Source of the DNA: an uncultured Candidatus Saccharibacteria bacterium | GTDB lineage: Bacteria; Patescibacteriota; Minisyncoccia; Phycocordibacterales; UBA9973 | DNA length: 64,000 bases | Direction: 5' to 3' | NCBI GenBank assembly: GCA_964646765.1 | Contig: CAZYIA010000003.1 | Span: 130,815-194,814 of the forward strand | Made by a program: the position numbers and the translations under genes | Part shown: positions 1 through 59,334 of the stretch, one piece after another | How the letters are laid out: each line of letters begins with the position of its first letter | Position numbering within the stretch: the first letter of the stretch is position 1 | Notes under the pieces: model-generated | What the model saw: the letters and a program-made list of their open reading frames with translations, nothing else | What the model was told of the DNA's origin: nothing | Database searches by the model: none

Positions 1-120
1 AAGGCCAAAGAAGGTTCTTAGGCGCTAGACTCCGGCGGGGAGGCCCGTTATAGCTAAATGAAGCGGCCCGAAAGGGAAGTAAGGTGGTACCGCGGGGAAG
101 CCCGTCCTTATGCAGTAAGT
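1..120 (+). ncRNA. rnpB: RNase P RNA (bacterial type), 3' portion, partial at window edge
   Basis: AAGGCCAAAGAAGG at 1-14 resembles the L15 GGCCAAA region. TAGCTAAATGAAGC (51-64) resembles the P18-region 'CCUAGAUGAAUGAC'. GGAAGCCCGTCCTTA (96-110) resembles the P4 3' strand 'ACAGAACCCGGCUUA'. No protein coding potential is visible. This rests on motif resemblance only; no covariance model was run. Confidence 0.4.
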
Positions 121-148
121 TATTATTGCCTAAGGACGGGTTTTATTT
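101..148 (+). terminator. Stem-loop (cccgtcctta / taaggacggg) followed by a TTTTATTT tract; terminator or terminal helix of rnpB
   Basis: A 10-bp perfect inverted repeat at 101-110 / 131-140 with a 20-nt loop, followed by a T-rich run ending directly at the ileS ATG (149). Confidence 0.4.
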
Positions 149-3655: not shown

Positions 3656-3658
3656 GAT

Positions 3659-4570: not shown

Positions 4571-4573
4571 TCT

Positions 4574-5143: not shown

Positions 5144-5144
5144 T

Positions 5145-5717: not shown

Positions 5718-5719
5718 GT

Positions 5720-6301: not shown

Positions 6302-6373
6302 GCGCATTAAGCTCTAAGCGTCATAGAAAGGGCTGACGAGTCGAATCTCGCTTGCTATACTTGCCTATATCAT

Positions 6374-8323
6374 ATGATTTCAAATGAGAATGAAAAGCCG
6401 CATGGTTTAGAGGATGTAACAAAAAAACTCTATAGCCGAGATGAGAAAGTTTTACCCGCACGGCGAGTGGGTATTTTACATAGTTTTAAAAAAGCTGTAG
6501 CTACTACCTGGAATTCTGAAAAGAAAGAGCAAGTTAAAGAAACTATTGCTACGCTCTCTGATCATGCCACCCATACCCCCTTCTTTAAGAAATTTTTTGT
6601 TGCCTCGAGTATTTTCTTTTTGGTCGCTTTGGCAATCGGAGGCTACCTCTTTTTCTTTGGCGGCGGGTCAGTTTCTTCAGAGAATGTAGGAATTAATATT
6701 TTAGGAAATGCTTTTACCTCTGGTGGTGAAAATCTTCCTCTGACGCTTGAAATTAGTAATAAAAACGCTATCCCACTCGAGCTTACTGATCTTATTATTG
6801 AGTACCCTAAAAGTGGGACAAGTCTTACCGATAACCCATCAGATATTGCTCGCGAACGTCAGTCAATTGGTACTGTTGAGGCTGGAAAAATTATCGAGCA
6901 TAAGGTAGATCTAACACTGTACGGAAAAGAGGGAAGCGTTAAACAAATTAAATTTACTCTTGAATTTCATGTGCCAGGATCAAACGCGGTATTTCAACGC
7001 GAAAAATTATTTGCGGTAAATATTAGTTCAGCGCCAATTAGTCTTACGGTGACCGCGCCAAACTCAACTACGGCTGAACAGGATTACACTGCAACTGTTA
7101 CCGTGGCAGCAAACACAACACGCTCTATTCCAAATATGCTTGTGCGCGTTGATTATCCAACTGGGTTTAAATTCCAGAGTGCAACGCCGCAGCCGACCTA
7201 TCTTTCAAACGTATGGAATATTGGCACGGTAGAACCTGGTAAACCAATTGATATTCAAATCAAAGGCACGCTTTCTGGAGAAGATGGTGAAGAGCGTTCG
7301 TTTAGAGTATATACCGGTGAAGCTAACCCGTCAGACAAAAATGAAATTGGTGTAGTGTATCAATCAACTCTCCACACTGTTGATCTAGTTCGTCCGTTTA
7401 TTGAAGCAACACTTGTGGTTAATGGCCAACGTGGTCCTGAAGTTACTATCAGTCCTCGCTCAACTATTACTGTTGAAATTCCATGGGCAAACAATCTGCC
7501 ATCATCGGTACTTGATGCTGAAATCAAAGCGACTATTTCTGGTAACCTCATTGATCGTACAACGGTCCAGCCTCGTGGAGGTTTCTTTAACTCGTCAGAA
7601 AATAGCATTATCTGGAATCGGGACACAGACGAAACGTTTGGTACGCTCGAACCAGGCGAGCATGGCAGCGTAGGCTTTACGTTCTCTACGTATAGTCTCT
7701 ACCACGACAATCAACTAGCTACGAATCCTACAGTTTCGGTTGATGTTTCAATTTCTGGTAAACAACCACAAGAAGGTAATTTCCTCCAGGCGGTGAATAG
7801 TTTTGCAAAAACAACAGCCAAGCTCACCACTGATTTTGCTTTCTCTGGTCAAGCGTACTACCACAGCGGACCGTTTGTAAACAGTGGACCACTTCCTCCA
7901 AAAGTTGATCAAAAAACCACATACACTGTTCGTTGGGCGCTTACTAGTTCGGCAAACAGTGTAAAAAATGTTGTGGTTCGAGGGGCACTTCCTCCGTATG
8001 TTCATTTCTTGGGTAATGTTTCGCCAGATGACGAAGATCTTTCACTTGACCCAATTACAGGTGAGGTTGTTTGGAACGCGGGTACAGTAGTTCGTGGTGC
8101 TGGTCTTACTGCTGATAGTGATCCGCGAGCGGTGTACTTCCAAGTTGAACTTACTCCATCTCTTTCGCAAATTGGTGATACTCCAACACTGGTTCTTGAA
8201 TCAAAAGCAACTGGGGTAGATACCTTTACCGGATTCCCACTTACATCAACCTGGCGTGAAATTAACACCCGGGTGTTTAATGATGCTGGATATCAGCAAG
8301 GTACCGACCAGGTAGTGCAATAA
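6374..8323 (+). CDS. Hypothetical membrane-anchored surface protein with repeated beta-rich domains
   Basis: 649 aa with an N-terminal TM helix (FFVASSIFFLVALAIGGYLFFF). It is Thr/Ser/Val-rich, with a recurring 'TGEVVWNAGTV / TLEPGE' type of motif reminiscent of DUF11-like conserved repeat domains. Confidence 0.4.
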   Translation: MISNENEKPHGLEDVTKKLYSRDEKVLPARRVGILHSFKKAVATTWNSEKKEQVKETIATLSDHATHTPFFKKFFVASSIFFLVALAIGGYLFFFGGGSVSSENVGINILGNAFTSGGENLPLTLEISNKNAIPLELTDLIIEYPKSGTSLTDNPSDIARERQSIGTVEAGKIIEHKVDLTLYGKEGSVKQIKFTLEFHVPGSNAVFQREKLFAVNISSAPISLTVTAPNSTTAEQDYTATVTVAANTTRSIPNMLVRVDYPTGFKFQSATPQPTYLSNVWNIGTVEPGKPIDIQIKGTLSGEDGEERSFRVYTGEANPSDKNEIGVVYQSTLHTVDLVRPFIEATLVVNGQRGPEVTISPRSTITVEIPWANNLPSSVLDAEIKATISGNLIDRTTVQPRGGFFNSSENSIIWNRDTDETFGTLEPGEHGSVGFTFSTYSLYHDNQLATNPTVSVDVSISGKQPQEGNFLQAVNSFAKTTAKLTTDFAFSGQAYYHSGPFVNSGPLPPKVDQKTTYTVRWALTSSANSVKNVVVRGALPPYVHFLGNVSPDDEDLSLDPITGEVVWNAGTVVRGAGLTADSDPRAVYFQVELTPSLSQIGDTPTLVLESKATGVDTFTGFPLTSTWREINTRVFNDAGYQQGTDQVVQ

Positions 8324-25217: not shown

Positions 25218-28200
25218 ATGACTACATTCATTAACTCAAAGGCTCTCAAAGTTGCCCTCGGGTTGGTAGTTGCTCTTGCATTCGTAGCTTCAGCTGCATC
25301 TGCACAGGCATATACCTTCACTCGCACCTTGAAAAAAGGTATGAGTGGTGCTGATGTTAAGGCTGCTCAGCAGATCCTTAACTCAACCCAATACAAAGTG
25401 GCAGCTTCTGGTGTTGGTTCAACTGGTCACGAAACTCTCTACTTCGGTGCAGCTACCGAAGCAGCAGTTAAAGCTTTCCAGGTTGGAAACAACATCGTAG
25501 GACCAGGTGTTGCTGGTTACGGTTGGATTGGCCCTCGCACCCAGCTCGCTCTCAACAACGTTGGTTCAGGTTCAGGTAACCAGGGTGGCAGTAGTAACTG
25601 TCAGCCAGGATGGCTCTTCAACCCTTACACTAACCAGCCTTGTTCTGGTGGTAGTAACGGTGGTCCAGTTGTTGCTGGTGCTGTATCTGCTTCTCTTGCT
25701 ACTGACAACCCAGCTTCTGGATACCTCGCAACTGGTACTGCAAACAACCCAGTTCTCAAGGTTTCAATTGCTAACGGTAGTTCAGCTTCAGTTAACGTAA
25801 CTGGCATTAAACTCACGAAGTCTGGTTTCTACACCAACACTGACGTGACTGGTGTTGCTGCTTACGATGCTGCTGGCGTTCGCCACGGTAACGTTATCTC
25901 TAGTCTCGGTTTCGACGGTTCAGCATTGCTTACATTTAGCTCTGATCCAATCGTTGTTCCAGCTGGATCTTCAACAACTGTTACCTTCCGTATCAACCTT
26001 TCTGGTTCAAACACTGGAACTATCAGCTTCGGCGTCATGAATCCTGCAACGGATATCATGCTCTCTGCTGGTGCTGCTTCTGGTTCAGCTGTTATGGGTA
26101 ACCTCTTCAGTGTTGTTAACGGTGGAACAAACATCGCTTCAGTTACTGTTGACGTACAACCAGTTAACCCAACTGGCGTACAGGTTAACGCTGATGGTAC
26201 TTCAGTTCAGACTATTACTAAGTTCCGTGTTACAAACACAGGTGCTGGTACTGAAGATGCTAAGCTCTTCAAGCTTACTCTTTGGAACAACGGTAATGCT
26301 GCTGATACCGACCTCAAGGACGTTCAGCTCTTTGACCAGACAAATAACCTTCTTGCAACTACTCAGATGAGTAACAAGATGGCAACGTTTGATCTCTCGG
26401 CTGCTCCTTACCTCATCGCTCAGGGCCAGTCTAAGGACTTCACCGTAAAGGCTAAGTTCGTTAACGGTGCATCTCGCACAGTTCAATTTGTAGTCTACAA
26501 TGACTACGATCTTGATGTTCGCGGTGCAACTACCATGGCTTCTGTTCTCCCAACTCACCCAATTGGTTACGACACAACTGTCGGATTCCCAGTTGGTGAC
26601 CAGTCATCAACCTACAACAAGGTTACGATCGGTTCTGGAAGTCTTGTTCTTTCTCGCGCAAGTGACTCACCAGCTACTTCAGTAGTTCCTGGTGCAAGTA
26701 ACATTGTGCTTGCTAAGTACATCGCTCGCCCAGTTGGTGAAAACATGGAAGTACGCGGTATGTCATTCGGTATTGACCAGAGTGCTGGTTCTGCCGTAAA
26801 CCTTACTGGTACTGTATACGTAAAGGTAAACGGTGCTATCGTCTTCAGTGGTGCTGCTTCTGGCTTTGCTAACAACGGTACTGCTGCTGCTCGTTCACTT
26901 TCTTCTTACCCAATATTAACTGCTGGTGTTGATAACGCTATCGAAATTAGCGCAACGCTCAGTTCTTCAGCTGACGCTACTGACGCTTACCAGGTAAAGG
27001 GCTTTGACATCACTTCAGTTAAGCGCCTCATTACTAATGATATCTATGATCCATTGGTAAGTGGACAGGATGGTTTCAACCGTGCTGTTCAGGCTGCTTC
27101 TCTCACTGTAACTACTCTTACGACTCCGGTTGCAACAACCATCGTTCCTGGTGCTGTTGATGCTCCTCTCGCAAGTGTCCAGTTCAACGCAAGTTCTTCT
27201 GGTGAACCAGTTCAGGTTTCTTCACTTGTTGTCACTGACACCAAGGGTACAAACGCTGTATACACTGATGTATACAACCTTGTCATGAAGGATGCTTCTG
27301 GTCAGGTTCTTACAACCACCTCTTCAACGACAACCAACGCTAACACTGTTACGTTTGATTTCACAAATCCGATTATGGTAAACGCAACCACTCCGGTTAC
27401 TGCTTACCTCTACGGTAGTGTTATCTCTGGCGCAACAGCTGGCTCAGGTGCTAACTACGCTCACACCTTCAAGGTAAGCTCAGTTACTGCAACTGGTGCT
27501 ACAACCGGTAACTCAATTGGCTCTCCGAGCTATGTTGGTTCTGGTCAGGCTATGGTTATCAACAGTGGTGGTACTCTCACACTTTCAACTGTTACTGGCG
27601 CAAACGCTACTCCTTCTACTTCACAGCTCGTTTCTGTAGGTCAGATGGACGGTGTTTACCTCGCTGGTCGCTTTACAGCACAGTACGAAGGTCAGAAGAT
27701 TACCTCTCTCACTCTTGAGGCTGCTGGTTCTAACTTGAACTCAAACAACATCAAGAACATCCGTCTCTACGCTCAGAACGGTAGTGGTTCTCTCTCGGCT
27801 GCAACTATGCCGTTTGCAACCATTTCACAGTTCACCTGTGCTGGAAACGTTTGTTCATACACTCTCACCAACAATGACAATGTTCTTCCGATGACGATTA
27901 ACCCGGGTACTCCAGTTACTCTCTTCGTTAAGGCTGACATCGAAGGTGAAGGTGTTGCAAACCTCGGTGATGACTTCTACTTCCGTGTACAAAACGGTGC
28001 AGACGTTGTTGCTAAGGGTGCTTTGAGCCAGGCTGCAACTTCAGAATCTGGTAACTTCAATGACTCTGCAACCGCTAAGTCATTCATCGTTCCATTCTCA
28101 GTTGTAACTTCAGGTTCATACCCTACAGAAGGTTCATCAACAACCACAACGGTTGCTGCTGGTTCAACTCTCGCTCGCTTCAAGGTTTCAAACCTTGGTA

Positions 28201-28613
28201 ACGCGCAGGTTACGCTTACTGACTTCAAAGTAACTGACAGTGGCTCAAACAGCCTCACAGTTGCTGGTGGAGACACGTACGCTCTCTACGCTTCAAACGA
28301 AAACGGTAGCAGCTATCTTGCTAACGCTCTCGGAAACGTAGACCCAGCTGGTGCTGTTTCAAACTGGACTGGTTTGACAACAACCATCAACGGTAACTCA
28401 TTCCGTTACTTCACAGTTGTTCTCAATGACGCTACTGGTGCTGCTTCAGGTGATAACTGGGCATTCTCAGTTGCTGCTCTTGGCGACGTTAAGTACTCGG
28501 CTGACGAAACCAACCTCGGTTACGATGGTAACCAGGACGGTGACCTTGGTGACACTATCAGTGGTCTCTACACTGACGGTAAGCCAACAGTTGGTACAAT
28601 CAACAAGCAATAA
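25218..28613 (+). CDS. Large secreted cell-surface protein with an N-terminal peptidoglycan-binding domain and a long Ser/Thr/Gly/Val-rich beta-repeat region
   Basis: Signal peptide (ALGLVVALAFVASAASAQA); a PG_binding_1-like segment (MSGADVKAAQQILNS...TEAAVKAFQ); and ~1000 aa of low-complexity T/S/G/A/V sequence that produces many shadow ORFs. Confidence 0.6.
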   Translation: MTTFINSKALKVALGLVVALAFVASAASAQAYTFTRTLKKGMSGADVKAAQQILNSTQYKVAASGVGSTGHETLYFGAATEAAVKAFQVGNNIVGPGVAGYGWIGPRTQLALNNVGSGSGNQGGSSNCQPGWLFNPYTNQPCSGGSNGGPVVAGAVSASLATDNPASGYLATGTANNPVLKVSIANGSSASVNVTGIKLTKSGFYTNTDVTGVAAYDAAGVRHGNVISSLGFDGSALLTFSSDPIVVPAGSSTTVTFRINLSGSNTGTISFGVMNPATDIMLSAGAASGSAVMGNLFSVVNGGTNIASVTVDVQPVNPTGVQVNADGTSVQTITKFRVTNTGAGTEDAKLFKLTLWNNGNAADTDLKDVQLFDQTNNLLATTQMSNKMATFDLSAAPYLIAQGQSKDFTVKAKFVNGASRTVQFVVYNDYDLDVRGATTMASVLPTHPIGYDTTVGFPVGDQSSTYNKVTIGSGSLVLSRASDSPATSVVPGASNIVLAKYIARPVGENMEVRGMSFGIDQSAGSAVNLTGTVYVKVNGAIVFSGAASGFANNGTAAARSLSSYPILTAGVDNAIEISATLSSSADATDAYQVKGFDITSVKRLITNDIYDPLVSGQDGFNRAVQAASLTVTTLTTPVATTIVPGAVDAPLASVQFNASSSGEPVQVSSLVVTDTKGTNAVYTDVYNLVMKDASGQVLTTTSSTTTNANTVTFDFTNPIMVNATTPVTAYLYGSVISGATAGSGANYAHTFKVSSVTATGATTGNSIGSPSYVGSGQAMVINSGGTLTLSTVTGANATPSTSQLVSVGQMDGVYLAGRFTAQYEGQKITSLTLEAAGSNLNSNNIKNIRLYAQNGSGSLSAATMPFATISQFTCAGNVCSYTLTNNDNVLPMTINPGTPVTLFVKADIEGEGVANLGDDFYFRVQNGADVVAKGALSQAATSESGNFNDSATAKSFIVPFSVVTSGSYPTEGSSTTTTVAAGSTLARFKVSNLGNAQVTLTDFKVTDSGSNSLTVAGGDTYALYASNENGSSYLANALGNVDPAGAVSNWTGLTTTINGNSFRYFTVVLNDATGAASGDNWAFSVAALGDVKYSADETNLGYDGNQDGDLGDTISGLYTDGKPTVGTINKQ

Positions 28614-29966: not shown

Positions 29967-29985
29967 GCTTTCTTGAGTAATAAAC

Positions 29986-30017
29986 TAAAAACACCCGAAA
30001 GGGTGTTTTTAGTTTTT
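29986..30017 (+). terminator. Rho-independent terminator
   Basis: AAAAACACCCGAAAGGGTGTTTTTAGTTTTT. Confidence 0.7.
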
Positions 30018-30068
30018 GGTGAGAAAAAAGTTATCTTTTCTGTATCTATGGTATGGGAGAGTATTTTC

Positions 30069-31469
30069 ATGAAGAGGGAATTTATTTTTGTGCTGATGTT
30101 GCTTTTAGTAGGTGCTATGCTGCCATTAAAAGCCTTTGCTGCGCCAACAATAACCGAAATAATGTATGACCTTGAGGGAACGGATACAAATCGAGAATGG
30201 ATAGAAGTTTGTAACGAAGGTGATAGCGTTTCACTTTCAGGCTGGAAATTTAATGATGGTTCTAACCACGGTATTAATGAACCAGGAACAAATGGCTCAG
30301 TAGGAAGTATAGAGCTTAATTCACATAGCTGTCTTATACTTGCCGCTAATGCAACAACTTTTCTTTCCGAGCATATTGGTTTTTCTGGTACTGTGCTCGA
30401 TACCGTGATGAATTTAAATAATACTGAAGATACACTTTCACTCATTGACGATCAGGGAGCTGTGGTGGCTAGTGCGGAATACTCAAACAGTATGGGGGCT
30501 GTAGGCGACGGTCTGAGTTTACAATGGGTTGGTGGCACTTTTGTTCCACGAACACCGACACCGGGAAGTGTAGCCAGTGGTGAGGAGCCGCCCACTACTT
30601 CCGATACCCAAGCTTCTTTTACGGTAAGTATTGATCAAAATGCCAAGCCGGTAGAACCGCCAAAAATTCCTACTCCGAAAATTGAACTTTCAGTTGGTGA
30701 TCGTGTACTGCGCGGAACTCCAATTGTCTTCGATACAAAAGTATATGACGCTTCTGGTTCTATTCGAACAAGTGGGTACTTTAAATATAACTTTGGTAAT
30801 GGTGAAATCTACGAGAGTGAAAATCCGACACCGCCAACATATACCTATCGCTACGCGGGTGATTACCTGCTGACCATTTCGTATGCTTTGAGTCGGTACG
30901 TTACAACGCCTGAGGTAACCTTTACAAAAACAATCACTGCATACGATCCGACCATTGCGATTTCACTAATGCCTCCTGATGGTATTACCTTGGAAAATAC
31001 ATCAAAACAAGACGTCGATCTTTCAGGATTTATTCTTCGCGTTAGTTCACCGTATCATCTAGTAACCCTGCCACGTATAGTTATTCGGGCAGGGAAAAGC
31101 ATTACTCTTGCACCAACAATTACTGGGCTTGGTTTGGATAAGGGACAAGTGATCACCCTTTTTGATCCGAGTGGCAGAGAGGTTGCTCGTTTTGAAGAAG
31201 CTGTATTGCCTAAAGCTGAAAATGAAATGGCCCCTAAAATACAAACCGCGGCTGTTTCGTATAGAATGCCAGCGACAACAGAAATAGTATCTAGCCCTGA
31301 TCCAGTAAAATCTCTTCAAAAGCCCAAAAATGAGCACAATGTACTTTGGACTATTTTTGCCTTAGCGCTGGCTGCGCTTGGTGGGTTAAGTGTGTGGTAC
31401 TTACGGGGTGAAAGGAAAGAGATCCACCATGAAGCCGATGCATTTACCATTCAGGAAATCACTGAATAA
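30069..31469 (+). CDS. Secreted lamin-tail-domain (LTD) protein with a PKD-like domain and a C-terminal membrane anchor
   Basis: Signal peptide; LTD-like ITEIMYDLEGTDTNREWIEVCNEGDSVSLSGWKF; PKD-like YDASGS...YTYRYAGDY; and a C-terminal TM helix (WTIFALALAALGGLSVWYL). The start was moved past the terminator to ATG 30069. Confidence 0.5.
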   Translation: MKREFIFVLMLLLVGAMLPLKAFAAPTITEIMYDLEGTDTNREWIEVCNEGDSVSLSGWKFNDGSNHGINEPGTNGSVGSIELNSHSCLILAANATTFLSEHIGFSGTVLDTVMNLNNTEDTLSLIDDQGAVVASAEYSNSMGAVGDGLSLQWVGGTFVPRTPTPGSVASGEEPPTTSDTQASFTVSIDQNAKPVEPPKIPTPKIELSVGDRVLRGTPIVFDTKVYDASGSIRTSGYFKYNFGNGEIYESENPTPPTYTYRYAGDYLLTISYALSRYVTTPEVTFTKTITAYDPTIAISLMPPDGITLENTSKQDVDLSGFILRVSSPYHLVTLPRIVIRAGKSITLAPTITGLGLDKGQVITLFDPSGREVARFEEAVLPKAENEMAPKIQTAAVSYRMPATTEIVSSPDPVKSLQKPKNEHNVLWTIFALALAALGGLSVWYLRGERKEIHHEADAFTIQEITE

Positions 31470-32070: not shown

Positions 32071-32880
32071 ATGCAAGAGAAACAATTATGGTTTAGAGCA
32101 AAACGATATGGTTGGGGCTGGTATCCAGTTACTTGGCAAGGTTGGATTATTCTTCTACTTTTTGTCGCAGTGTACGGTTTAAACGTAGTTTTTTTCACTG
32201 GCAGAGGTACTGAACCAACAAATAGTGAACTTTTTTGGTTTCTTGTTCGCACGGTAGTTTTGGTTGGCACACTTATCTATGTATGTTATCGACATGGTGA
32301 GACACCAGGCTGGCGATGGGGAGAAGAAAAAGAAGAACAGATTGCTATCTTCACCAGCGAAGGAAAACCCACTGGCAGTATTGCCAATTTCTCCGAGGTG
32401 CATGCCAAAGGTCTTTGGCATGAGACGGTGCACATTTGGATTGTGACGCCAGAGAAAAAGATTTTGATGCAGAAGCGTTCCGGAAAGAAAAATGCTGGTG
32501 GAGGGGAATGGGATAATCATGGCGGCCATATTGCGGCAGGTGAAACACCAGAAGCAGCGATTATTCGCGAAGTGAAGGAAGAGATTGGACTTACACTAAC
32601 AAAGAATATTCTCAAGCGAACAATTCGTTATAGTAAAAGTCACTCATATAAAAATAATACCTTTATTGAAAACGAGCATATCAATGTTTTTATTGCCGAG
32701 GTTTCAGTAGCTCTTTCTGATCTCAAACTTGATCGGAATGAGGTTTCTGACGCCCAACTCTTTACACTTCCCGAGCTTTCCGTAGGTAAAGCATCTGATG
32801 GTTCCATAATTGGTATGTCTGCAAAAGAATATCAGGTACTACTTGCGTATCTCTCTAGCGAAAAAAATGGCAACGCGTAA
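32071..32880 (+). CDS. Nudix hydrolase with an N-terminal membrane domain
   Basis: Two or three N-terminal TM helices, then a Nudix box GGHIAAGETPEAAIIREVKEEIGL. Confidence 0.65.
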   Translation: MQEKQLWFRAKRYGWGWYPVTWQGWIILLLFVAVYGLNVVFFTGRGTEPTNSELFWFLVRTVVLVGTLIYVCYRHGETPGWRWGEEKEEQIAIFTSEGKPTGSIANFSEVHAKGLWHETVHIWIVTPEKKILMQKRSGKKNAGGGEWDNHGGHIAAGETPEAAIIREVKEEIGLTLTKNILKRTIRYSKSHSYKNNTFIENEHINVFIAEVSVALSDLKLDRNEVSDAQLFTLPELSVGKASDGSIIGMSAKEYQVLLAYLSSEKNGNA

Positions 32881-40009: not shown

Positions 40010-40012
40010 TTA

Positions 40013-40135
40013 CTAGCGCGTAGTGTGCAGAAAGCTTTGATATGGGTTTCGGCCGTTATCAAGCCATCCCAGAAAAATACCTACCCCAAAGGTGATAGTG
40101 CCAAGCAAGATCAGCCATACAATCGCCTTTTTCAT
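40013..40135 (-). CDS. 40-aa micro membrane protein (not in the ORF track)
   Basis: Reverse-strand ORF MKKAIVWLILLGTITFGVGIFLGWLDNGRNPYQSFLHTTR with a single TM helix. It is preceded by an extended -10 (TGgTAAAAT, 40142-40150 on the - strand) exactly 6 nt upstream of the ATG. Confidence 0.35.
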   Translation of the reverse strand: MKKAIVWLILLGTITFGVGIFLGWLDNGRNPYQSFLHTTR

Positions 40136-40141
40136 AGGCCG

Positions 40142-40179
40142 ATTTTACCACAGCTTTAGAGTAGGTCGTATGCTATACT
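40142..40179. promoter_or_regulatory. Divergent pair of -10 elements, each 6 nt from its start codon (TGgTAAAAT on the - strand; TATACT at 40174-40179 on the + strand)
   Basis: Both can be read directly. The ATG at 40135 (-) and the ATG at 40186 (+) are each 6 nt from a -10 hexamer. Confidence 0.4.
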
Positions 40180-40185
40180 CCGCCT

Positions 40186-40416
40186 ATGGTAAATAGGCAA
40201 ATCCACGGTCACAACGTGCGCTATGAAGAGCATGATTTGGGGGCCGAAGAGGCAGTGCGGTTTTTAGAAATTCACAGTTCTCGTGAAGAAGCCGATGTCT
40301 TTTTCCATCAGGCTAAAGAGCGGGGAACTGCCCAGTTTGAGGATCGCCACGGAAAGAATTTTACCCTCATTCACCATATGGACGGTTACTACACCATTGA
40401 GCCAAGAAGTTATTAG
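40186..40416 (+). CDS. Small hypothetical protein (76 aa), paralogous to the next ORF
   Basis: The C-terminus HGKNFTLIHHMDGYYTIEP resembles GEKYKIVHDGGGNFHLKE in the downstream ORF. Confidence 0.4.
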   Translation: MVNRQIHGHNVRYEEHDLGAEEAVRFLEIHSSREEADVFFHQAKERGTAQFEDRHGKNFTLIHHMDGYYTIEPRSY

Positions 40417-40431
40417 TTTTAAATAGTAAGC

Positions 40432-40644
40432 ATGTCTAGCAGTAATTTTTTTGATAAGTATTCGCTTTCCTATGATTCAGGACTGGAAAGAGTAAAGGAC
40501 CACCTGAAGCATGATAGCGGAACGAAGGGACTGTTTTCTGAAGCAGAAGCCCATCATTACGGGTATTTCAGGTATAAAGGAGAAAAATATAAAATTGTAC
40601 ACGATGGAGGTGGCAATTTTCATCTAAAAGAAGACCATTTTTAA
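40432..40644 (+). CDS. Small hypothetical protein (70 aa), paralogous to the previous ORF
   Basis: See above. It is immediately followed by pheS with a 2-nt gap. Confidence 0.4.
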   Translation: MSSSNFFDKYSLSYDSGLERVKDHLKHDSGTKGLFSEAEAHHYGYFRYKGEKYKIVHDGGGNFHLKEDHF

Positions 40645-40646
40645 TT

Positions 40647-41345
40647 ATGGAAACTCGCGGTACTCTCCATCCGATCTCTTTGATTACGGACGACATTGTT
40701 CGCATTTTCGACAACCTTGGGTTTGAAGTTGCCACTGGCCCTGAACTTGAAGATGAATGGTATAACTTCGATGCGTTAAATGTGGCAAAAGATCATCCGG
40801 CACGAGACATGCAAGACACCTTTTGGATTAAAGGGGAGCAAGGTAAAGTACTTCGCACCCACGTTACTTCTACTACTGCTCGATTTTTAGAGCGTGTCGG
40901 TAAAGAGGGAACATTTCCACGCGCCTCGATTTCAGTCGGCAAAGTATTTCGGAACGAAGCAACAGATGCTACGCACGAAATGCAATTCTTCCAAGTTGAT
41001 GGTTGTGCTATTGGAGAAAATATTAATCTCGGTAATTTAAAATCTACACTTCTTACTCTCTATAAAGGTTTACTTGGTGAAGATACTGAAATACAGCTTC
41101 GCCCAAGCTTTTTTCCGTTCACTGAACCTTCAATTGAAGTGTGGGTGAAGTTCCGCAACCGATGGCTCGAAATGATGGGTGGCGGCATGATTCATCCAAA
41201 TGTACTCCGTAATCTTGGAATCGATCCTGAAAAATACCAGGGCTTTGCTTTCGGTGGAGGAGTTGATCGTATTTTAATGGTAAAGCACGACATTCCAGAT
41301 GTTCGCTTGCTTTATCAAGGTGATCTTCGCGTAAACCAATTTTAG
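40647..41345 (+). CDS. pheS: Phenylalanyl-tRNA synthetase alpha subunit (catalytic core only, N-terminally truncated)
   Basis: FDALNVAKDHPARDMQDTFWI, the class II motifs 2/3, and FGGGVDRILM are present. At 232 aa it is far shorter than canonical PheS. Confidence 0.85.
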   Translation: METRGTLHPISLITDDIVRIFDNLGFEVATGPELEDEWYNFDALNVAKDHPARDMQDTFWIKGEQGKVLRTHVTSTTARFLERVGKEGTFPRASISVGKVFRNEATDATHEMQFFQVDGCAIGENINLGNLKSTLLTLYKGLLGEDTEIQLRPSFFPFTEPSIEVWVKFRNRWLEMMGGGMIHPNVLRNLGIDPEKYQGFAFGGGVDRILMVKHDIPDVRLLYQGDLRVNQF

Positions 41346-41346
41346 T

Positions 41347-41757
41347 ATGAAGAATTTTTTTAGATTGGTTTCAATATATTTCCTGGATTTTCTATTTCCG
41401 GAAATACCAAATTTAATCCAGATTTTAACATTTATACTTGTCCTGAGTTTTTTGCTTCCCGATAAGTATGGCATCTGGATGACTACCACTCTGTTTTTGT
41501 TTGGTTCGTATTTAGTGGCGAAATTGTATAGGTTCCCTCAAGATTTTTATGACAAAGAATATCTTATAGACAATTTAAAGAGATTTTTTAATATTTCCAG
41601 CATACTATCTTTAATAATTCTAGCATTAGTATTTTGGGGGATAATTCAGGTGACAAAAATTATTGCCATAGAGACAAAGTTACGAGACTTAGAAAGGGTC
41701 GCATCGTTTAAACAACTCAAAACTGAGGAAGTTGCTTCTTTTTTAAAAAACAATTAA
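41347..41757 (+). CDS. Hypothetical membrane protein encoded by an AT-rich insert between pheS and pheT
   Basis: 136 aa with 3-4 TM helices. The local GC is visibly lower than in the flanks. Confidence 0.4.
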   Translation: MKNFFRLVSIYFLDFLFPEIPNLIQILTFILVLSFLLPDKYGIWMTTTLFLFGSYLVAKLYRFPQDFYDKEYLIDNLKRFFNISSILSLIILALVFWGIIQVTKIIAIETKLRDLERVASFKQLKTEEVASFLKNN

Positions 41758-43642: not shown

Positions 43643-45565
43643 ATGGTTTTTCAACGCCGCTATAGGCTACTGATAACTTCTCTCGTTACACTTTTCTTTT
43701 ACGGTGCTGGCGTTTCCTATGCTATGACGCTCGTAGCGCCTCATACCGTACTTGATCCAGTTGGTCTTCCTGGAGCGTATTCGGTGCAAACTGGTCCAGC
43801 CGGTTCTTCTTCCTCTATTCAATATAACGATGCCGGTGCTTTTGGTGCTGATCCAAACTTTACTCGCAACCCTCTCGGTACGGATTTTAATGTCATCTCA
43901 GATATTGGCACAGGAGTATCTGCCCGTATTCAGCAAAGTAGTTCGGTATTAGGTATAGGAATAAAAGGAACAGCGTTTTTGTATTCCGATAATAATTATG
44001 TATCTAGTTTTACGGGTATAGTAGCCGGGGACTTTACTGCTGTAGGTGGGGAAGCTAACGCAATGCTTATTGGTTACCAAGCGTTTAGTGGAGGAACTTC
44101 AGCTACTATTACACCAACGTATGATGCTGGTTCTGACACGTCTACTATTGGAGTTTCCACGAAAAATAGCACAGGAAAGGAGGCCCGTGTTGGAGTACAG
44201 GCAAACCCAACAGGAGGTAATATTAGTTTTAATTTTGGTGGTTCAAATAATTACTACTTTCCAGATACAGAACCTACTATAGGTACAGTTTTAGGATACA
44301 CAGGCTCTCATCAACTCGGTTGGGTTTCTGCTGGTGGTGGCGGTGGAGTAACAATAGGTAATCCAATTACCGGAGGCACTGGCGACCGTATTTTGTTTGA
44401 AGATGCTTCAAACAATCTTCGAGAAAGTAATAATTTAATATTTGTTGATACAACTGGTTATTTTGATGTTTCTTTTGCGGGTAGTACTCATTTCTTAAGT
44501 AATCCTTCAAGTGGGCAGTACTATATGGGTACTAACGGCGGAAATAAAACACTCATTCAGATACTTGATGGTGGTACCAATGAAATTTCAAATAGTGTAA
44601 ACGGTCAATTCTACGTTCAACAAACAAATGGCCCAAGACTTATTGATGGAAATACTAACACGTTTAATCTCTACCTTGGTGATGTAGGGCATAATGCAAA
44701 TACTACCTCTATCGAGCTCTTAGACTCTGCTGCACAGATACATCTTGTTGCTCACTCAACTGGAATTGGTTCTAGCGGTTTAATTGAAATTGGTGACAGA
44801 AACAACGATGGTAATAGCACGAAGTTTAGTTTGAATGATTTTGCTAGACAAGTATTTGTTCAAACAAATGGAGATTTTGGAGTACAGAATTTTTCAGGAC
44901 AACGTGCTATCGATGTTGATTTCTCATCGGGATTTTATTTTGCAGCAGGTGATGCTAATGCTGTTGCAAATGGTACGAAACTTACCGTCAACGACAGCAC
45001 TTCGCTTGTTACTATTAATGCAGCAAATGGGTTGGTAGTTAATGATAATAATTCCCACACATGTACTGTTGATCCGAACGGCGGCACCTGTACTTCTGAT
45101 GAACGTCTCAAAACTAATATTACTGATCTTCCTTCGACTACTCTCAATACTCTTGCTGGCCTTCGCACCGTTACCTACACCTGGAACAGTGGTGCTGATA
45201 TGACAACAAAGCATATTGGTTTTTTGGCACAAAATGTTCGCGATGCGTATCCAGAACTCGTTAGTACTGACCCAAATGGATACCTAGGTGTAAATTATCC
45301 AGGGTTCACCCCACTTCTTGTTGAAGCATTGAAAGAAGTGAAGTTGCAGCTTGATTCGCTTGATACTCTTATAACTACCAATACGTCATTTACTGCTCAC
45401 ATGCGAGAATGGTTGGGAGATACGGCAAATGGAATTGCTCGTATTTTTGCAGACAAAGTTGAGACGCATGAACTGTGTGTTGATGGTCAGTGTCTAAATG
45501 AGCAGGATGTGCGTGACCTTCTACAGTTGCGCAACCAAGTATTGGGCACCCTGGTACAGTCCTAA
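43643..45565 (+). CDS. Secreted fibre-like protein with a C-terminal intramolecular-chaperone (Peptidase_S74 / endosialidase chaperone-like) domain
   Basis: An N-terminal hydrophobic anchor, then a conserved VAPHTVLDPVGLPGAYSV motif, then a Gly/Asn/Thr-rich beta region. The C-terminus SDERLKTNITDL...HIGFLAQNVRDAYPELV...GYLGVNYPGFTPLLVEALKE matches the tail-fibre chaperone consensus. Confidence 0.6.
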   Translation: MVFQRRYRLLITSLVTLFFYGAGVSYAMTLVAPHTVLDPVGLPGAYSVQTGPAGSSSSIQYNDAGAFGADPNFTRNPLGTDFNVISDIGTGVSARIQQSSSVLGIGIKGTAFLYSDNNYVSSFTGIVAGDFTAVGGEANAMLIGYQAFSGGTSATITPTYDAGSDTSTIGVSTKNSTGKEARVGVQANPTGGNISFNFGGSNNYYFPDTEPTIGTVLGYTGSHQLGWVSAGGGGGVTIGNPITGGTGDRILFEDASNNLRESNNLIFVDTTGYFDVSFAGSTHFLSNPSSGQYYMGTNGGNKTLIQILDGGTNEISNSVNGQFYVQQTNGPRLIDGNTNTFNLYLGDVGHNANTTSIELLDSAAQIHLVAHSTGIGSSGLIEIGDRNNDGNSTKFSLNDFARQVFVQTNGDFGVQNFSGQRAIDVDFSSGFYFAAGDANAVANGTKLTVNDSTSLVTINAANGLVVNDNNSHTCTVDPNGGTCTSDERLKTNITDLPSTTLNTLAGLRTVTYTWNSGADMTTKHIGFLAQNVRDAYPELVSTDPNGYLGVNYPGFTPLLVEALKEVKLQLDSLDTLITTNTSFTAHMREWLGDTANGIARIFADKVETHELCVDGQCLNEQDVRDLLQLRNQVLGTLVQS

Positions 45566-45686
45566 TCAAGGAAGTACCTCTAAGGACAAACTAAAATTTA
45601 GAACAGCTGTAGCTCATTCCTACAAGCAAAACCTGCAAAATACGGTTGGAAAATTCACGAACAATCATGTTATACTTTGCTAACGT

Positions 45687-48041
45687 ATGTTTAAAAAGTA
45701 CCGAGTAGTTACCGGAATCGCTATTTTTCTTTCCCTCTATACGGGGGCGTTATGCGCTTTTGCAACTACCTATGTTGCTCCTGGTACCGTGCTTGATCCC
45801 GCTGGTCTTCCTGGTGGTTACACCGTTGGACCTTTTTTGTCATATGGTGGTGCTGTTACCACAGGGCACGATAACGAGGTTCTCTATATGGATGGCAGTG
45901 GTAACTTAGTTAGTGATTCAAATTTTGTTCGGGACGCTTCAACAGGTGAGACGCTCATAAGCCAAGATCAATCAGGCATAACGGCTGGAGTTGGAATGTC
46001 TCAGACACTTTTTGGAGGCTTACCTGCTGTTAGTTTTATTCGTCAGGATAGTAATGGTTCAGCAGTTGCTGGTTTATTTGATACAACTTCACTTGGAGGT
46101 AGCGCGTATACTTTTTATGTACATACTCAGGACTCAATAGTAAACTCGCAGGCTCAATTGTTTACCCTTCCTCACTCAATTGGTGGAGGAGTGGCAAATG
46201 CTACTGGTGAGCAAGGATCTTTTAATATACAAGATGATAGTGCCGCGTTACGTGTAGATAATCAGAATGGCGGTAATAATGATGTTGTTCAACTCGGTGT
46301 GGATTTAGGTACAGGGTTGGGTACTCAGTATGCATATCTTGAATTCAGAGATGTTGCTAAACGCTACCTCGCAAGATTTGGTTCGAATGGTCTTACCCTC
46401 GATTTTGATAACGGGGCAAGTACCCCAGGATTATTTTATTCTTTTCCAGTTACTGATGGGACTAGCGGTCAAGTACTTGCAACTGATGGCTCTGGTCAAA
46501 TTTCATGGGTATCAACTTCTGCAACGATCCAAGGGTATACTTCCGCAATCCCTGCTCTGCTCAATACGGCATTAGGTGTAAATACAGCAGATGTCGGAGT
46601 TGGGTATTCAAATACTTGGATAGGCGCAGGTGCTGGTAGTTCTATGACGGTAAATAACAGCGCGCCGTATTCTCGAAATACATTTGTTGGCGCATTTGCC
46701 GGAAGTAACATAACTACCGGAACTAGTAACGTACTTGTTGGATATCAGTCTGCTTTTTCTACAACTAATGCAGACTATAACGTTCAGATTGGTACTGATA
46801 CTGAACTTTTTGATGGTGCACAAAATACTGTTTCTATTGGTCAGAGTGTGAAAGCTGGTGGTATTACCAATATTCTTATTGGGTATGCTGCAGGAAGTGG
46901 GGGAATTGATAGTTCAAGTGCTCGCAATATTGGTATGGGGTATTCAGCTTTGTCTGCGCTTACCACTGGAAGTGATAACGTTGCTTTAGGTACTGATGCA
47001 GGTGTTGGTGTAACCACAGGTAGCGACAATATTCTCATTGGTAAAAATGCCACCGCAACGGGAGACGGTTCAATTGTTATCGGAAACAATCTCTCAGCTC
47101 CTACAGATAAATTAGTCCTCATTGGTGGTTTATTTGAAGGAGGATATGATCCTGCTGGTTTAAATGGAGTGTATGCGTTCCTTGGAGATCGCTATAATGC
47201 AGGACATGGCACCGTGCTATCGGTTGACGATAAAAACCAAAAGATTAGATTTTACTTTGGCGCTAATAGCTACACATTTCCTTCAGCGGACGGCACTATG
47301 AACTATCTTCTTGCAACTGATGGTTCGGGAAATCTCTTTTGGCAGGATCCAACACTTGTTCCATCAGATCGTACGCTCAAAACAGATGTTGAATCACTTC
47401 AGTATGGTCTCTCAACTATCATGAATCTTAACCCAGTTTCGTATACACTGACTGCAAATAATAAACGCCAAATTGGTTTTATTGCACAGGATGTTGAACC
47501 AATCGTTCCCGAACTTGTCGGTGAGGTTGCTGATGGTAAGAAAGGTTTGGCATACGGACAGCTTACTGCGGTTATTGTGAAGGCAATTCAAGAACTTAAT
47601 ATGAAGGTAGAAAATATTCAGCCGCTTTCAAGTGAACCATCCTCACTTATTGATCAGTTTACTTCCGCTATTCTTCACATTCGTGGTTTAGTTGTTGGGT
47701 CATCAGAGTATCGAACGGGTATTACTCTTTACGATGAAGTAACTGGAGAACCATACTGTCTTTCTGTCGCGGATGGGCAGCCAAAAAGTGTTGCCGGAGA
47801 ATGTGGATCAGGAGTTTCTTCTTCAGGATCTACTTCTAATTCGACAAATAGTGATACTAGCATAGATGATCAAGGCGTATCAGGAAGTACACCTGCTGAT
47901 GACGCTACGACCTCTTCAGATACTTCTTTAGACAGTACAACTACTGTTGTAGATGCTTCAAATAGTTCCTCAAATGGGTCAACAAGTGAGGATAGTACCA
48001 CCCAAGGAGAAACAGCAGATAGTTCTACGGGAACTGAATAA
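45687..48041 (+). CDS. Paralogous secreted fibre-like protein with a Peptidase_S74-like chaperone domain and a Ser/Thr-rich C-terminal tail
   Basis: The N-terminus (TYVAPGTVLDPAGLPGGYTV) is conserved with the upstream gene. SDRTLKTDVESL...QIGFIAQDVEPIVPELV...GLAYGQLTAVIVKAIQELN fits the chaperone consensus, followed by an S/T-rich low-complexity tail. Confidence 0.6.
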   Translation: MFKKYRVVTGIAIFLSLYTGALCAFATTYVAPGTVLDPAGLPGGYTVGPFLSYGGAVTTGHDNEVLYMDGSGNLVSDSNFVRDASTGETLISQDQSGITAGVGMSQTLFGGLPAVSFIRQDSNGSAVAGLFDTTSLGGSAYTFYVHTQDSIVNSQAQLFTLPHSIGGGVANATGEQGSFNIQDDSAALRVDNQNGGNNDVVQLGVDLGTGLGTQYAYLEFRDVAKRYLARFGSNGLTLDFDNGASTPGLFYSFPVTDGTSGQVLATDGSGQISWVSTSATIQGYTSAIPALLNTALGVNTADVGVGYSNTWIGAGAGSSMTVNNSAPYSRNTFVGAFAGSNITTGTSNVLVGYQSAFSTTNADYNVQIGTDTELFDGAQNTVSIGQSVKAGGITNILIGYAAGSGGIDSSSARNIGMGYSALSALTTGSDNVALGTDAGVGVTTGSDNILIGKNATATGDGSIVIGNNLSAPTDKLVLIGGLFEGGYDPAGLNGVYAFLGDRYNAGHGTVLSVDDKNQKIRFYFGANSYTFPSADGTMNYLLATDGSGNLFWQDPTLVPSDRTLKTDVESLQYGLSTIMNLNPVSYTLTANNKRQIGFIAQDVEPIVPELVGEVADGKKGLAYGQLTAVIVKAIQELNMKVENIQPLSSEPSSLIDQFTSAILHIRGLVVGSSEYRTGITLYDEVTGEPYCLSVADGQPKSVAGECGSGVSSSGSTSNSTNSDTSIDDQGVSGSTPADDATTSSDTSLDSTTTVVDASNSSSNGSTSEDSTTQGETADSSTGTE

Positions 48042-48062
48042 AAAACCTTATTTTATAAGCTT

Positions 48063-48087
48063 AAAAACGCCCTTAAGGGCGTTTTTA
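48063..48087 (+). terminator. Rho-independent terminator
   Basis: AAAAACGCCCTTAAGGGCGTTTTTAAGC. Confidence 0.65.
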
Positions 48088-48175
48088 AGCACTAGGAAAC
48101 TAACAAAAAATATGCTAAACTTTTGGAAGTTTAAGGCTTATTCCTTAAGCCTTTATTTTTATAGAATCTATCAAC

Positions 48176-50261: not shown

Positions 50262-50843
50262 ATGGAAATTAAAAAGCCAAAAGATCTTCAGCCAATACCT
50301 GAGAACGCACAATGTGTTTTCAAAGGAAAGATCTTTGATGTCTATCAATGGGAGCAAGAACTCTACGATGGTACTAAAGCTACGTTTGAGAAGTTAAAAC
50401 GGCCTGATACCGTTGTTGTCTGGCCGGTGCTTCCAAACGGCAATATTCTTTTAACTAAGCAATCGCAGCCAAGCCGAGAAGATTTTATAGATGTACCAAG
50501 TGGCCGAGTAGATGAAGGTGAAGATGTTTTAGAAGCTGCTAAACGTGAACTCTTGGAAGAAACTGGGTATGCATCGGAGAATATGGTTTTCTGGCGCGCA
50601 TTTCAGCCTACGGCAAAAATAGAATGGTTTGTATATCTTTTCATTGCCAAAGACTGCAAAAAAGTAAAAGAGCAAAACCCAGATGTCGGAGAAAAGATAG
50701 AAACCTTCGAAGCTTCTTTCGATGAAATTTTAGAAATTTCACAACAACCTAACTTCAGGGGAACAGAATCCTCTCGAGATTTTCTTGAAGCAAAATATAA
50801 CCCAAAGAAATATCAGGAATTTAAGGATTTGTTTTTGAAATAA
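50262..50843 (+). CDS. Nudix hydrolase
   Basis: Nudix box GRVDEGEDVLEAAKRELLEETGY. Confidence 0.7.
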   Translation: MEIKKPKDLQPIPENAQCVFKGKIFDVYQWEQELYDGTKATFEKLKRPDTVVVWPVLPNGNILLTKQSQPSREDFIDVPSGRVDEGEDVLEAAKRELLEETGYASENMVFWRAFQPTAKIEWFVYLFIAKDCKKVKEQNPDVGEKIETFEASFDEILEISQQPNFRGTESSRDFLEAKYNPKKYQEFKDLFLK

Positions 50844-58428: not shown

Positions 58429-59334
58429 ATGGCCAATAGACACCTTTCACGTTCAATCATCCTTCAAACCCTCTTTGAGTGGGATTTTAAGGGACAACCT
58501 CTCGAAGGTGTTTTTGACATGCTCGAGCGGAACGCTGAAGAATTTGCACCAGGCCTCGACGACTATGAATTTATGAAGGCGATGACTGAGAGCGTGGTTA
58601 AAAACCGCCTCATCATCGACCAGGTTATCGAAAAAGCCGCTCCAGAATGGCCGCTCGAAAAGATTAATGCAGTTGACCGTAACATCCTTCGCATTGGACT
58701 TGCCGAGCTCCTTTTTGGTGACCACGCTGCTGTACCACCAAAAGTTTCTATTAACGAGGCTATTGAATTGGCGAAAACCTTCGGCGGGGATAGTTCCTCA
58801 CGCTTTATTAATGGCGTGCTTGGTGCTGTGTATAAAGAAATTGGTGAGCCAGGCAAAGAGCAAAAATCAAAGCGCCAAATGAAAGACGAACCGGTTGATG
58901 TTTCAACACTTCCGGTTGAACAGAAAGCAGGTGCTGTGGTGTACGCAGAGCATGATGGGGAAGTGTACCTTGCGTTGGTGCACGATGTGTTTGGCTACTG
59001 GACCCTTTCAAAAGGTGGCGTAGAAGAAAGTGATAAATCATCTGAAGATGCCGCTAAGCGTGAAGTAAAAGAAGAAATTGGTATCGATGTAGCCGTTAAA
59101 GAAAAACTCGGTGAAGATGAGTATATTGCTTCGCATCCAGAGAAAGGAAAAATTCGCAAACATGTTACTTTCTTTCTTGCAGAATCAAAATATCAGCCAC
59201 TCAAACTTGAATCTTCAGGTGGTTTAGATGAAGCCGCTTGGTTTACGCTTTCTAATGTGACAAAGCTTCGCATGTATGATAGTGTGACCGCACTGATCGC
59301 GAAAGCAATCCCGATCATTACTAGCAAAAAGTAA
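58429..59334 (+). CDS. nusB: NusB (transcription antitermination factor) fused to a C-terminal Nudix hydrolase domain
   Basis: The N-terminal ~140 aa are NusB-like (ANRHLSRSIILQTLFEWDF...). The C-terminal ~150 aa carry a Nudix box (GGVEESDKSSEDAAKREVKEEIGI). Confidence 0.6.
   Translation: MANRHLSRSIILQTLFEWDFKGQPLEGVFDMLERNAEEFAPGLDDYEFMKAMTESVVKNRLIIDQVIEKAAPEWPLEKINAVDRNILRIGLAELLFGDHAAVPPKVSINEAIELAKTFGGDSSSRFINGVLGAVYKEIGEPGKEQKSKRQMKDEPVDVSTLPVEQKAGAVVYAEHDGEVYLALVHDVFGYWTLSKGGVEESDKSSEDAAKREVKEEIGIDVAVKEKLGEDEYIASHPEKGKIRKHVTFFLAESKYQPLKLESSGGLDEAAWFTLSNVTKLRMYDSVTALIAKAIPIITSKK

Follow-up and report, generated by a model that had tools for sequence, protein, structure and literature searches.

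Why should a bacterium carry, between its pheT and gyrB genes, two adjacent genes whose products end in the manner of phage tail fibres? The question is raised by a 64-kb stretch of DNA (64,000 nucleotides, hereafter the window) from an uncultured Candidatus Saccharibacteria bacterium (contig CAZYIA010000003.1, positions 130,815 to 194,814 of the forward strand), in which two open reading frames (ORFs), named here A (43643-45565, 640 aa) and B (45687-48041, 784 aa), follow one another on the + strand, as do all the features of the pair that are located below. Our answer, which we hold to be probable, is that A and B encode exported, chaperone-matured trimeric surface fibres that would bind other cells; within this answer, the notion of an exported fibre matured by an S74 chaperone appears much firmer than that of an adhesin. 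Both ORFs had been picked out by an earlier sequence-only reading and are indeed present, and the tandem paralogy that it proposed is supported by two aligned blocks, A 5-229 with B 3-276 (E-value 1e-13) and A 430-616 with B 494-698 (2e-13), the overall identity of the two proteins being only 27%. The shared N-terminal motif VAP(H/G)TVLDP(V/A)GLPG is likewise real and is conserved at the DNA level (83% over 41 nt). No match to A or B was returned by a search of NCBIfam, and their PHROG matches, which extend through the C-terminal region, are to tail fibre and tail spike families exclusively.

The nature of this C-terminal region is the first point to settle. As had been claimed from the letters, both proteins contain a Peptidase_S74 domain: the hidden Markov model (HMM) PF13884 matches residues 485-540 of A (E 1.1e-15, 58 bits) and residues 560-611 of B (E 5.1e-15, 55.9 bits), for a cutoff of 22 bits. 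The quoted chaperone motifs are found (SDERLK at A485, SDRTLK at B560, HIGFLAQNV/QIGFIAQDV and PELV), and the spacing of the Ser-Lys dyad is S-x4-K in both proteins, with Ser485 and Lys490 in A and Ser560 and Lys565 in B. The latter two residues show no variation across a 59-sequence alignment of B relatives, and the catalytic Ser and Lys are also invariant in a 15-member family alignment. Searching the PDB with single sequences gave nothing for A and one weak match for B; a C-terminal (ICD) profile built from the 15 family members matched a phage tail fibre (8JOV, E 8e-14), gp37 of phage S16 (6F45, E 1.3e-13), MyRF (7DC3, E 8e-9), the L-shaped fibre of phage T5 (8HQZ, E 6e-5) and the neck appendage of phage GA-1 (3GUD, E 3e-4). 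In the profile alignment the dyad of the family falls on the SDERxK of the phage chaperones; MyRF has PADLRAK over the dyad stretch, and only its Lys is in register in the HMMER alignment. AlphaFold2 (AF2) models were made of full-length single chains and were used for the chaperone and the YadA-like region alone. In the model of A, for which 3GW6, the endosialidase chaperone, is the top PDB hit (probability 0.97), residues 500-560 reach a predicted local distance difference test score (pLDDT) of 76-87; residues 560-640 of B reach 83-94 and match the ICA domain of MyRF (7DC3, probability 1.0, TM-score 0.63), the B chaperone model additionally matching 4UW8 and 3GW6. The assignment as an S74 intramolecular chaperone holds by HMM, by profile-to-PDB comparison and by fold. 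The domain extends from residue 485 to ~585 in A (45095..45397; Pfam, ICD profile and fold) and from residue 560 to ~668 in B (47364..47690; Pfam, alignment and fold). Since the released fragment of GA-1 starts exactly at SDERHK, the expected cut lies immediately N-terminal to Ser485 and Ser560, and by analogy both A and B would trimerise and cleave themselves.

The opposite end of the proteins bears on whether they leave the cytoplasm. The hydrophobic N-terminus described by the sequence-only reading is present in both, while the anchor that it saw there has instead the look of a Sec signal peptide that would be cleaved off. Immediately before the conserved motif stands a small-x-small site (SYA↓M in A, AFA↓T in B), and the same holds in every member of the family. 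In A, the predicted signal peptide occupies residues 1-27 (43643..43723, MVFQRRYRLLITSLVTLFFYGAGVSYA) and shows a basic n-region, a 16-aa hydrophobic core and the S-Y-A site, a layout seen in all relatives; the conserved motif follows at residues 28-45 (43724..43777, MTLVAPHTVLDPVGLPGA) and is common to B and to the paralogues P0158 and P0161 described below. In B, residues 1-26 (45687..45764) end in A-F-A and form a helix at 2-24 in the AF2 model, and the motif covers residues 27-44 (45765..45818, TTYVAPGTVLDPAGLPGG). The N-termini of P0021 and P0161 are 57-63% identical to that of B. Signal-peptide calls are here heuristic judgements on sequence layout, and on this footing A and B look like proteins exported through a Sec signal peptide. 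The motif exists in two forms. The Cys-free form LDP-x-GLPG-x-Y is carried by A, B, P0006, P0021, P0158 and P0161; the form LDP-x-C-x-PG-x3-C is confined, at the related gyrB loci considered below, to S74 fibre ORFs, thirteen of its fifteen matches being accompanied by S74 and the other two being fragments of broken or gapped genes. Two other kinds of export signal were considered and rejected, a lipoprotein signal because the hydrophobic region ends without a lipobox Cys, and a pilin-type signal for want of a G↓F prepilin site.

What lies between the two ends differs from one protein to the other. A begins with an N-proximal beta-rich domain (residues ~46-230, 43778..44332, including IQYNDAGAFGADPNF and FPDTEPTIGTVLGYTGSHQLGW), which is 27% identical to B 45-276 and 48-50% identical to the phage proteins P0002-P0004, and continues with a shaft and tip (residues ~231-484, 44333..45094) that is all-beta in the AF2 model and in which the repeat GD-x5-N-x-T-x5-(L/V)-x-D occurs three times (residues 346, 384 and 436). 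This shaft is common to the phage proteins up to residue ~460 and to the cellular proteins P0005/P0006 from residue ~290. B has an N-proximal domain (residues ~45-278, 45819..46520, ending in FPVTDGTSGQVLATDGSGQISW) of low model confidence, which is 42% identical to P0006, 46% to P0140 and 27% to A. Next come head repeats built from N-x2-(I/V/L)-G-x2-A units (residues ~290-482, 46554..47132); around residues 300-480 the model reaches a pLDDT of 83-96 and its fold matches the heads of YadA (1P9H) and BoaA (3S6L) with a probability of 0.84, the Pfam match to YadA_head being weak (E 0.011, under the cutoff). A neck (residues ~483-559, 47133..47363), again of low model confidence, carries a second motif of the type FP..DG...L.TDGSG.L.W. 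As modelled, B is a YadA-like head joined to an S74 chaperone. Its classification as a trimeric autotransporter adhesin was rejected, for no YadA_anchor match was obtained and the C-terminus consists of S74 plus a tail. It is worth adding that A has a pair of cysteines, Cys474 and Cys483, just ahead of the cleavage site (residues 474-484, window 45062-45094), which could close a loop at the mature tip; a Cys two or three residues ahead of the cleavage Ser (…C-T/S-S-D-E-R-L-K) occurs in A and in most inspected relatives, and none is found in B.

Neither protein stops at the chaperone. In A, the domain is followed by a module of residues ~586-640 which, with the stop codon, occupies 45398..45565 (WLGDTANGIARIFADKVETHELCVDGQCLNEQ...) and is modelled by AF2 as helices and a Cys-x4-Cys hairpin. 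This post-chaperone module of ~55 aa is kept, with invariant Cys, in 13 of 15 aligned family members, and its consensus reads W/F-L-x-D/S-A/T-x-N-G-I...L-C-V-x3-C-V-T..Q; it has no sequence match to any solved chaperone, the PDB alignments stopping at about position 117 of the 175 of the profile. B carries a variant module (residues ~669-705, 47691..47801, RTGITLYDEVTGEPYCLSVADG...GEC) of the type G-(I/F)-T-(L/M)-YD...PYC...GEC, also present in L016_7472_9844 and in the Parcubacteria protein P0040, and ends in a low-complexity tail (residues 706-784, 47802..48041 with the stop codon) rich in Ser, Thr, Asp and Gly (S 30%, T 20% and D 13% of its 79 aa; pLDDT <50). The idea that such a tail is atypical did not survive comparison: most relatives have a P/T/S/G/E-rich tail past the chaperone, and it is A that is the exception.

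Are A and B isolated curiosities of this genome? At least four paralogous fibre genes, A, B, P0158 and P0161, were found in it, at three housekeeping loci. P0161 (1039 aa; L103:10001-13120) is located between dut (dUTPase) and argS, ~1.9-5.0 kb upstream of the first position of the window, and is placed in the same chromosome because positions 15021-23120 of L103 are 100% identical to positions 1-8100 of the window; its signal peptide and motif are followed by YadA-like repeats, S74 and an S/T/G tail. P0158 (1102 aa; L102:3442-6750), whose attribution to the source genome rests on the database contig record, comes after purH, a gene of 212 aa and a mechanosensitive (MS) channel gene. The signal peptide, the motif with the conserved N-terminal domain, S74 and the C-terminal module occur in all four paralogues, the tail in three of the four. 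Beyond this genome, a word-indexed search with the profile of the N-terminal domain returned one protein only, and an exhaustive HMMER search with it returned 400 cluster representatives at E <= 1e-3, 18 of them at E <= 1e-30. Many of these representatives combine signal peptide, motif and S74, and among the top 150 there are 34 with a signal peptide but without S74. The architecture of the lineage can be summarised as a signal peptide with a small-x-small end, then Y-x-P-x4-LDP-x-C-x-PG-x3-C or the Cys-free form, a variable body, the sequence S-(D/S)-x-(R/K)-(L/F)-K, a coiled coil (QELDLKI), the ~55-aa module and, usually, a P/T/S/G/E-rich tail. In a related genome (L098:10001-12946; also L099 and L100), the fibre gene P0140 of the purH/MS-channel locus breaks off at about residue 470, its homology to P0006 ending at 468; at the break a large serine recombinase gene starts on the opposite strand, followed by a helix-turn-helix gene, and an integrative element seems to have been inserted into P0140.

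The position of the pair is of a cellular rather than a viral kind. The sequence-only reading had placed it outside any prophage and in an organism of the candidate phyla radiation, and both statements were upheld. The window contains no phage gene, be it for a capsid, a terminase or an integrase, and the pair is flanked by housekeeping genes, with a UvrD-like helicase, pheS and pheT before it and gyrB, NUDIX, Ham1, HAD, thrS, dnaE, RNase HII, NusB-NUDIX, RNase III and SMC after it; FtsK, a Mur ligase, HIT and an M24 peptidase are encoded farther upstream in the window. The window has neither tRNA genes nor Rfam matches, and the flanks of the pair show no direct repeats pointing to a recent insertion and no att-like repeat. 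The GyrB relatives in GTDB representative genomes all belong to Patescibacteria (labelled Paceibacterota, Nomurabacteria or Parcubacteria), the best being 84% identical. The organism itself is a member of the Paceibacteria (Parcubacteria), represented by a metagenome-assembled genome. A scan of genome contigs with A as query recovered no relative, not even the source genome, and the site was compared across 80 related gyrB loci found with gyrB as query. Synteny of pheS, pheT and gyrB is common among them, and pheT abuts gyrB in many. In 14 of the 80, ORFs with S74 lie on the gyrB strand, in most cases immediately 5' of that gene; tandem pairs or triplets of them are frequent, as in L016 (871 + 561 + 790 aa), L029 (1920 + 1310 aa) and L033 (1375 + 681 aa). 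The closest relatives are 83-84% identical to the window in GyrB and 66-69% in PheT, whereas their island proteins have only the chaperone region in common with A/B, at 30-43% identity, and their bodies are unrelated. The question whether relatives keep this very pair beside pheST thus has a mixed answer: the pair is not kept, the insertion site is kept and its content replaced, and the gap between pheT and gyrB is a positionally conserved, hypervariable fibre island, that is, a hotspot. The islands of the three closest relatives also contain a conserved secreted protein of 556-563 aa (L015:2729-4399, L016:5692-7377 and L038:7925-9616; signal peptide ending in …AQVV, 53-60% identical), of which the window has no copy.

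Where do the bodies come from? Relatives of A are few (17 in a word-indexed search), and the closest, P0002, P0003 and P0004, are 48-50% identical to it over residues ~40-460, with P0007 at 38%; these four proteins have different ends and no S74. Their genes sit in fibre position on contigs of 30-46 kb (L001-L004) whose genes are unidirectional and mostly unannotated. Because PHROGs and Pfam leave most proteins of L001-L003 without a match, the viral nature of these three was shown through L004, which has genes for a major head protein (phrog_9953, E 2e-38) and for an adaptor of the SU10 type (Pfam, E 1.2e-12), and through synteny in IMG/VR. L001-L003 have a syntenic structural module in common; their portal-sized, capsid-like and other genes have relatives, 27-46% identical, in IMG/VR genomes of 43-47 kb, in one of which a large terminase gene (phrog_2, E 2e-25) lies directly upstream, and their capsid-like protein matches Phage_capsid_4 weakly. 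L001-L004 are uncultivated phage genomes. Nothing among GenBank phages matches this capsid-like protein, and a scan of IMG/VR with A gave only a motif match of ~25 aa (residues 47-76) and no true homologues. Fibre genes adjoining the A-like ones in these phages are 30-38% identical to the repeat region of B. At the DNA level A and the phage genes are ~65% identical, which indicates that the exchange was not recent. Residues 290-632 of A are in turn 38-39% identical to P0005 and P0006, the latter cellular in context. Taken as a whole, A is a mosaic, with an export end and a chaperone of the cellular-family type and a shaft drawn from a pool common to phages. Two further features of these phages may be mentioned: L001-L004 and L095-L097 make up a phage group of 30-47 kb with terminase, portal-sized, capsid-like and adaptor genes and several tandem fibre genes, and P0002 (of L001), like its relatives P0163 and P0185, has a signal-peptide-like start (…ASA↓DVTANFW), which is odd in a virion protein.

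The sequence-only reading took the pair for a candidate undescribed system. This proved wrong, for chromosomal secreted fibres that end in S74 are established as the mosaic adhesive trimer (MAT) family of Bdellovibrio (PMC10769870), and similar proteins of Parcubacteria and Bacteroidota already stand in databases as 'tail fiber' proteins. MAT fibres, as described by Caulton et al. 2024 (PMC10769870), are chromosomally encoded mosaic trimers with a signal peptide and a conserved N-terminal domain; 13 of the 21 have an S74 terminus that bears SDxxxK, Bd3182 has been proven to cleave itself (S782), the fibres are surface displayed and one of them binds prey glycans. The MAT-like proteins that have been listed come from several predator lineages, Omnitrophica among them, and none is from Patescibacteria (PMC10769870); in the open-access literature we found no paper tying S74 or MAT fibres to Patescibacteria. 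In both cases chromosomal genes encode a conserved N-terminus behind a signal peptide, a long beta-rich fibre with mosaic body and tip, and a C-terminal S74 with SDxxxK; both form multigene families (21 genes there, at least four here) with phage-like features and no prophage, and, like Bdellovibrio, the bearer of A and B presumably lives on other bacteria. Mosaicism of the MAT type is found here, with differing bodies on the same ends, S74 and non-S74 termini and several genes. There are nevertheless differences. The conserved N-terminal element of the family of A and B is a short LDP-type motif with a domain that also occurs in phage fibres; the A/B lineage has an extra conserved Cys-containing module and low-complexity tails past the chaperone; the shaft of A is directly ~50% identical to phage fibre genes; and A and B are known from genes alone. 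Phylum and envelope differ as well, Bdellovibrio being a diderm predator. Patescibacteria are generally regarded as monoderm, and the organism probably has no outer membrane into which an anchor of the YadA type could insert.

Other proteins offer partial parallels. Phage fibres with a C-terminal chaperone (K1F endosialidase 3GW6, T5 pb1 4UW8/8HQZ, S16 gp37 6F45 and GA-1 gp12 3GUD; PF13884, MEROPS S74) have the same domain by profile and fold, a Ser-Lys dyad with its residues five apart and the chaperone at the C-terminal end of a beta-rich fibre, and the shaft of A is homologous to phage fibre shafts. In contrast to them, A and B lie among housekeeping genes of a chromosome, have a signal peptide and the LDP motif where the N-terminal virion-attachment region would be, and continue past the chaperone with extra sequence; moreover, the phage relatives of the A shaft themselves lack S74. 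With trimeric autotransporter adhesins (YadA, BoaA, AtaA) B has in common the head repeats predicted with high confidence at ~290-482, but it has an S74 chaperone where the YadA_anchor beta-barrel would sit. MYRF represents another non-viral use of the domain, and its ICA domain (7DC3) is the best structural match of the B chaperone; this domain undergoes trimerisation-dependent self-cleavage, and its Ser-Lys spacing of five residues is that of endosialidase (PMC3742443). Its N-terminal cargo, in contrast, is a DNA-binding domain, and a transmembrane (TM) segment follows ICA, whereas none follows the chaperone in A or B.

On these grounds a sequence of events can be proposed, with K1F endosialidase, T5 pb1, MyRF and Bdellovibrio Bd3182 as models for its mechanism. 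After export, the C-terminal chaperone would gather three chains and template the folding of a trimeric fibre; it would then cleave the chain just N-terminal to Ser485 in A or Ser560 in B, freeing the chaperone together with the post-chaperone module and the tail and exposing the tip of the fibre. The mature fibres, ~28-484 in A and ~27-559 in B, would stay on the cell surface, held by the conserved N-terminal end, and would bind surface structures of other cells, most likely those of a presumed partner organism. At the pheT-gyrB hotspot, fibre genes are replaced repeatedly, with modules drawn from a pool common to phages. That the fibres are displayed on the cell, shed their chaperone and serve in attachment is plausible by inference. 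It must be said that several observations weigh against this proposal. Mature A and B have no LPXTG, no lipobox and no C-terminal TM segment, and their retention at the cell is an assumption; the single-chain AF2 models, with a mean pLDDT of 58, are poor outside the chaperone and the YadA-like region; and the likeness to the N-terminal domain of MAT, of ~130 aa, is one of architecture. Finally, a conserved module of ~55 aa and long tails that would be discarded after cleavage are hard to explain, and the C-terminal part may have a function of its own.

One may ask whether the fibres are directed against phages instead of towards other cells. As decoys or receptor masks, they would shield the phage receptor of their own cell or bind the phage and so limit its adsorption, and an arms race would explain their hypervariability; the identity of 48-50% between residues ~40-460 of A and genes in fibre position of phages, an island content that turns over much faster than its flanks, and a serine-recombinase element inserted in an orthologous fibre gene of a related genome all fit such a scenario. 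We nevertheless hold it to be unlikely, since the DNA identity of only ~65% between A and the phage genes makes the sharing old, the bodies of B, P0158 and P0161 are of the YadA-like adhesin type and not phage-specific, the phage proteins have other C-terminal tips and no S74, and MAT, the only analogue studied by experiment, is an adhesin. Comparable, and equally doubtful in our eyes, is the combined proposition that bacterium and uncultivated phages share a pool of fibre shafts and tips because both bind the same surface, and that the post-chaperone module and tail have their own function. It might take either of two forms: the phages would infect the host organism of the episymbiont, so that parasite and phage share recognition modules, or they would infect the Paceibacterium itself, the exported fibres being decoys or masks; the module and tail might, for instance, hold the precursor in the wall until cleavage.

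Two explanations do without any recognition of a partner or a phage. The fibres might be a general component of the envelope, such as a brush or matrix associated with an S-layer, with the tails as spacers. Wall-associated proteins commonly have S/T/P/G-rich tails, the genes belong to a family of several copies and the Pfam search showed no specific ligand-binding domain in A; yet structural coat proteins are usually conserved, whereas the bodies are replaced here between species 84% identical in GyrB, the S74 mechanism would cleave the tails off, and B has head repeats of the adhesin type, so that this view has little probability. It is more improbable still that A and B are the leftover tail-fibre genes of a decayed prophage, devoid of cellular function. 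All PHROG matches are to tail fibres or tail spikes, the body of A is closest to phage genes, and the GC content at third codon positions (GC3) is lower in A (0.28) and B (0.26) than in the neighbouring housekeeping genes (0.34-0.44), overall GC being alike; this explanation is nevertheless largely refuted, for both ORFs are intact and have signal peptides, for which a virion fibre has no need, the 64 kb contain neither capsid, terminase, integrase or tRNA genes nor an att-like repeat, intact S74 genes occupy the same insertion site in 14 related species, and at least four intact paralogues with a conserved N-terminal export motif stand at three housekeeping loci. An exported fibre, matured by its S74 chaperone and binding other cells, remains for us the probable explanation.

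Domain, mechanism and the concept of S74 fibres encoded by cells were all known before; what is new is a multigene family in Paceibacteria, its short N-terminal motif, the post-chaperone module and tails, the pheT-gyrB hotspot and the sharing of modules with uncultivated phages. Type IV pili and unnamed adhesins have been implicated in Saccharibacteria (PMC10633639, PMC12206443); for other ultra-small Patescibacteria, the means by which partner cells are found and held are largely unexplained. A hypervariable family of exported fibres provides concrete candidates for partner recognition in Paceibacteria, and the conserved insertion site between pheT and gyrB a simple marker with which fibre repertoires can be compared across genomes. 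Uncultivated phages might also be tied to the Paceibacteria lineage or to its hosts by way of their fibre genes, given the identity of ~50%. Our claim is modest because the principle has already been established in Bdellovibrio and the evidence for A and B is computational.

Some minor features of the locus may be described in closing. A promoter-like site 5' of B (45647..45676, TGGAAA-18-TATACT with TG) came out of a consensus scan and is weak; the number of such sites does not exceed that expected from shuffled sequence. Terminator-like hairpins in the gap between B and gyrB (48059..48153) are pattern matches alone. They comprise a perfect palindrome of 16+16 nt (32 nt, 48059-48090, GCTTAAAAACGCCCTT/AAGGGCGTTTTTAAGC), which begins 18 nt past the stop codon of B, and a second hairpin with a T-run ahead of gyrB (48129-48153). 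On the other side of the pair (40010-41757), the pheS ORF has just 232 aa, the ~640 nt before it contain no listed ORF of at least 80 aa, and a hydrophobic ORF of 136 aa without Pfam match (41347-41757) sits between pheS and pheT. Elsewhere in the window, two large proteins are probably exported, one of 1131 aa with the peptidoglycan-binding domain PG_binding_1 (25218-28613) and one of 498 aa with Lamin Tail Domains (29973-31469). A 301-aa ORF (58429-59334) unites NusB (residues 7-136) and NUDIX (residues 167-279) in an unusual fusion; the window holds at least three NUDIX genes besides this fusion, and those for which positions are given, the fusion included, lie at 32071-32880, 50262-50843 and 58429-59334.

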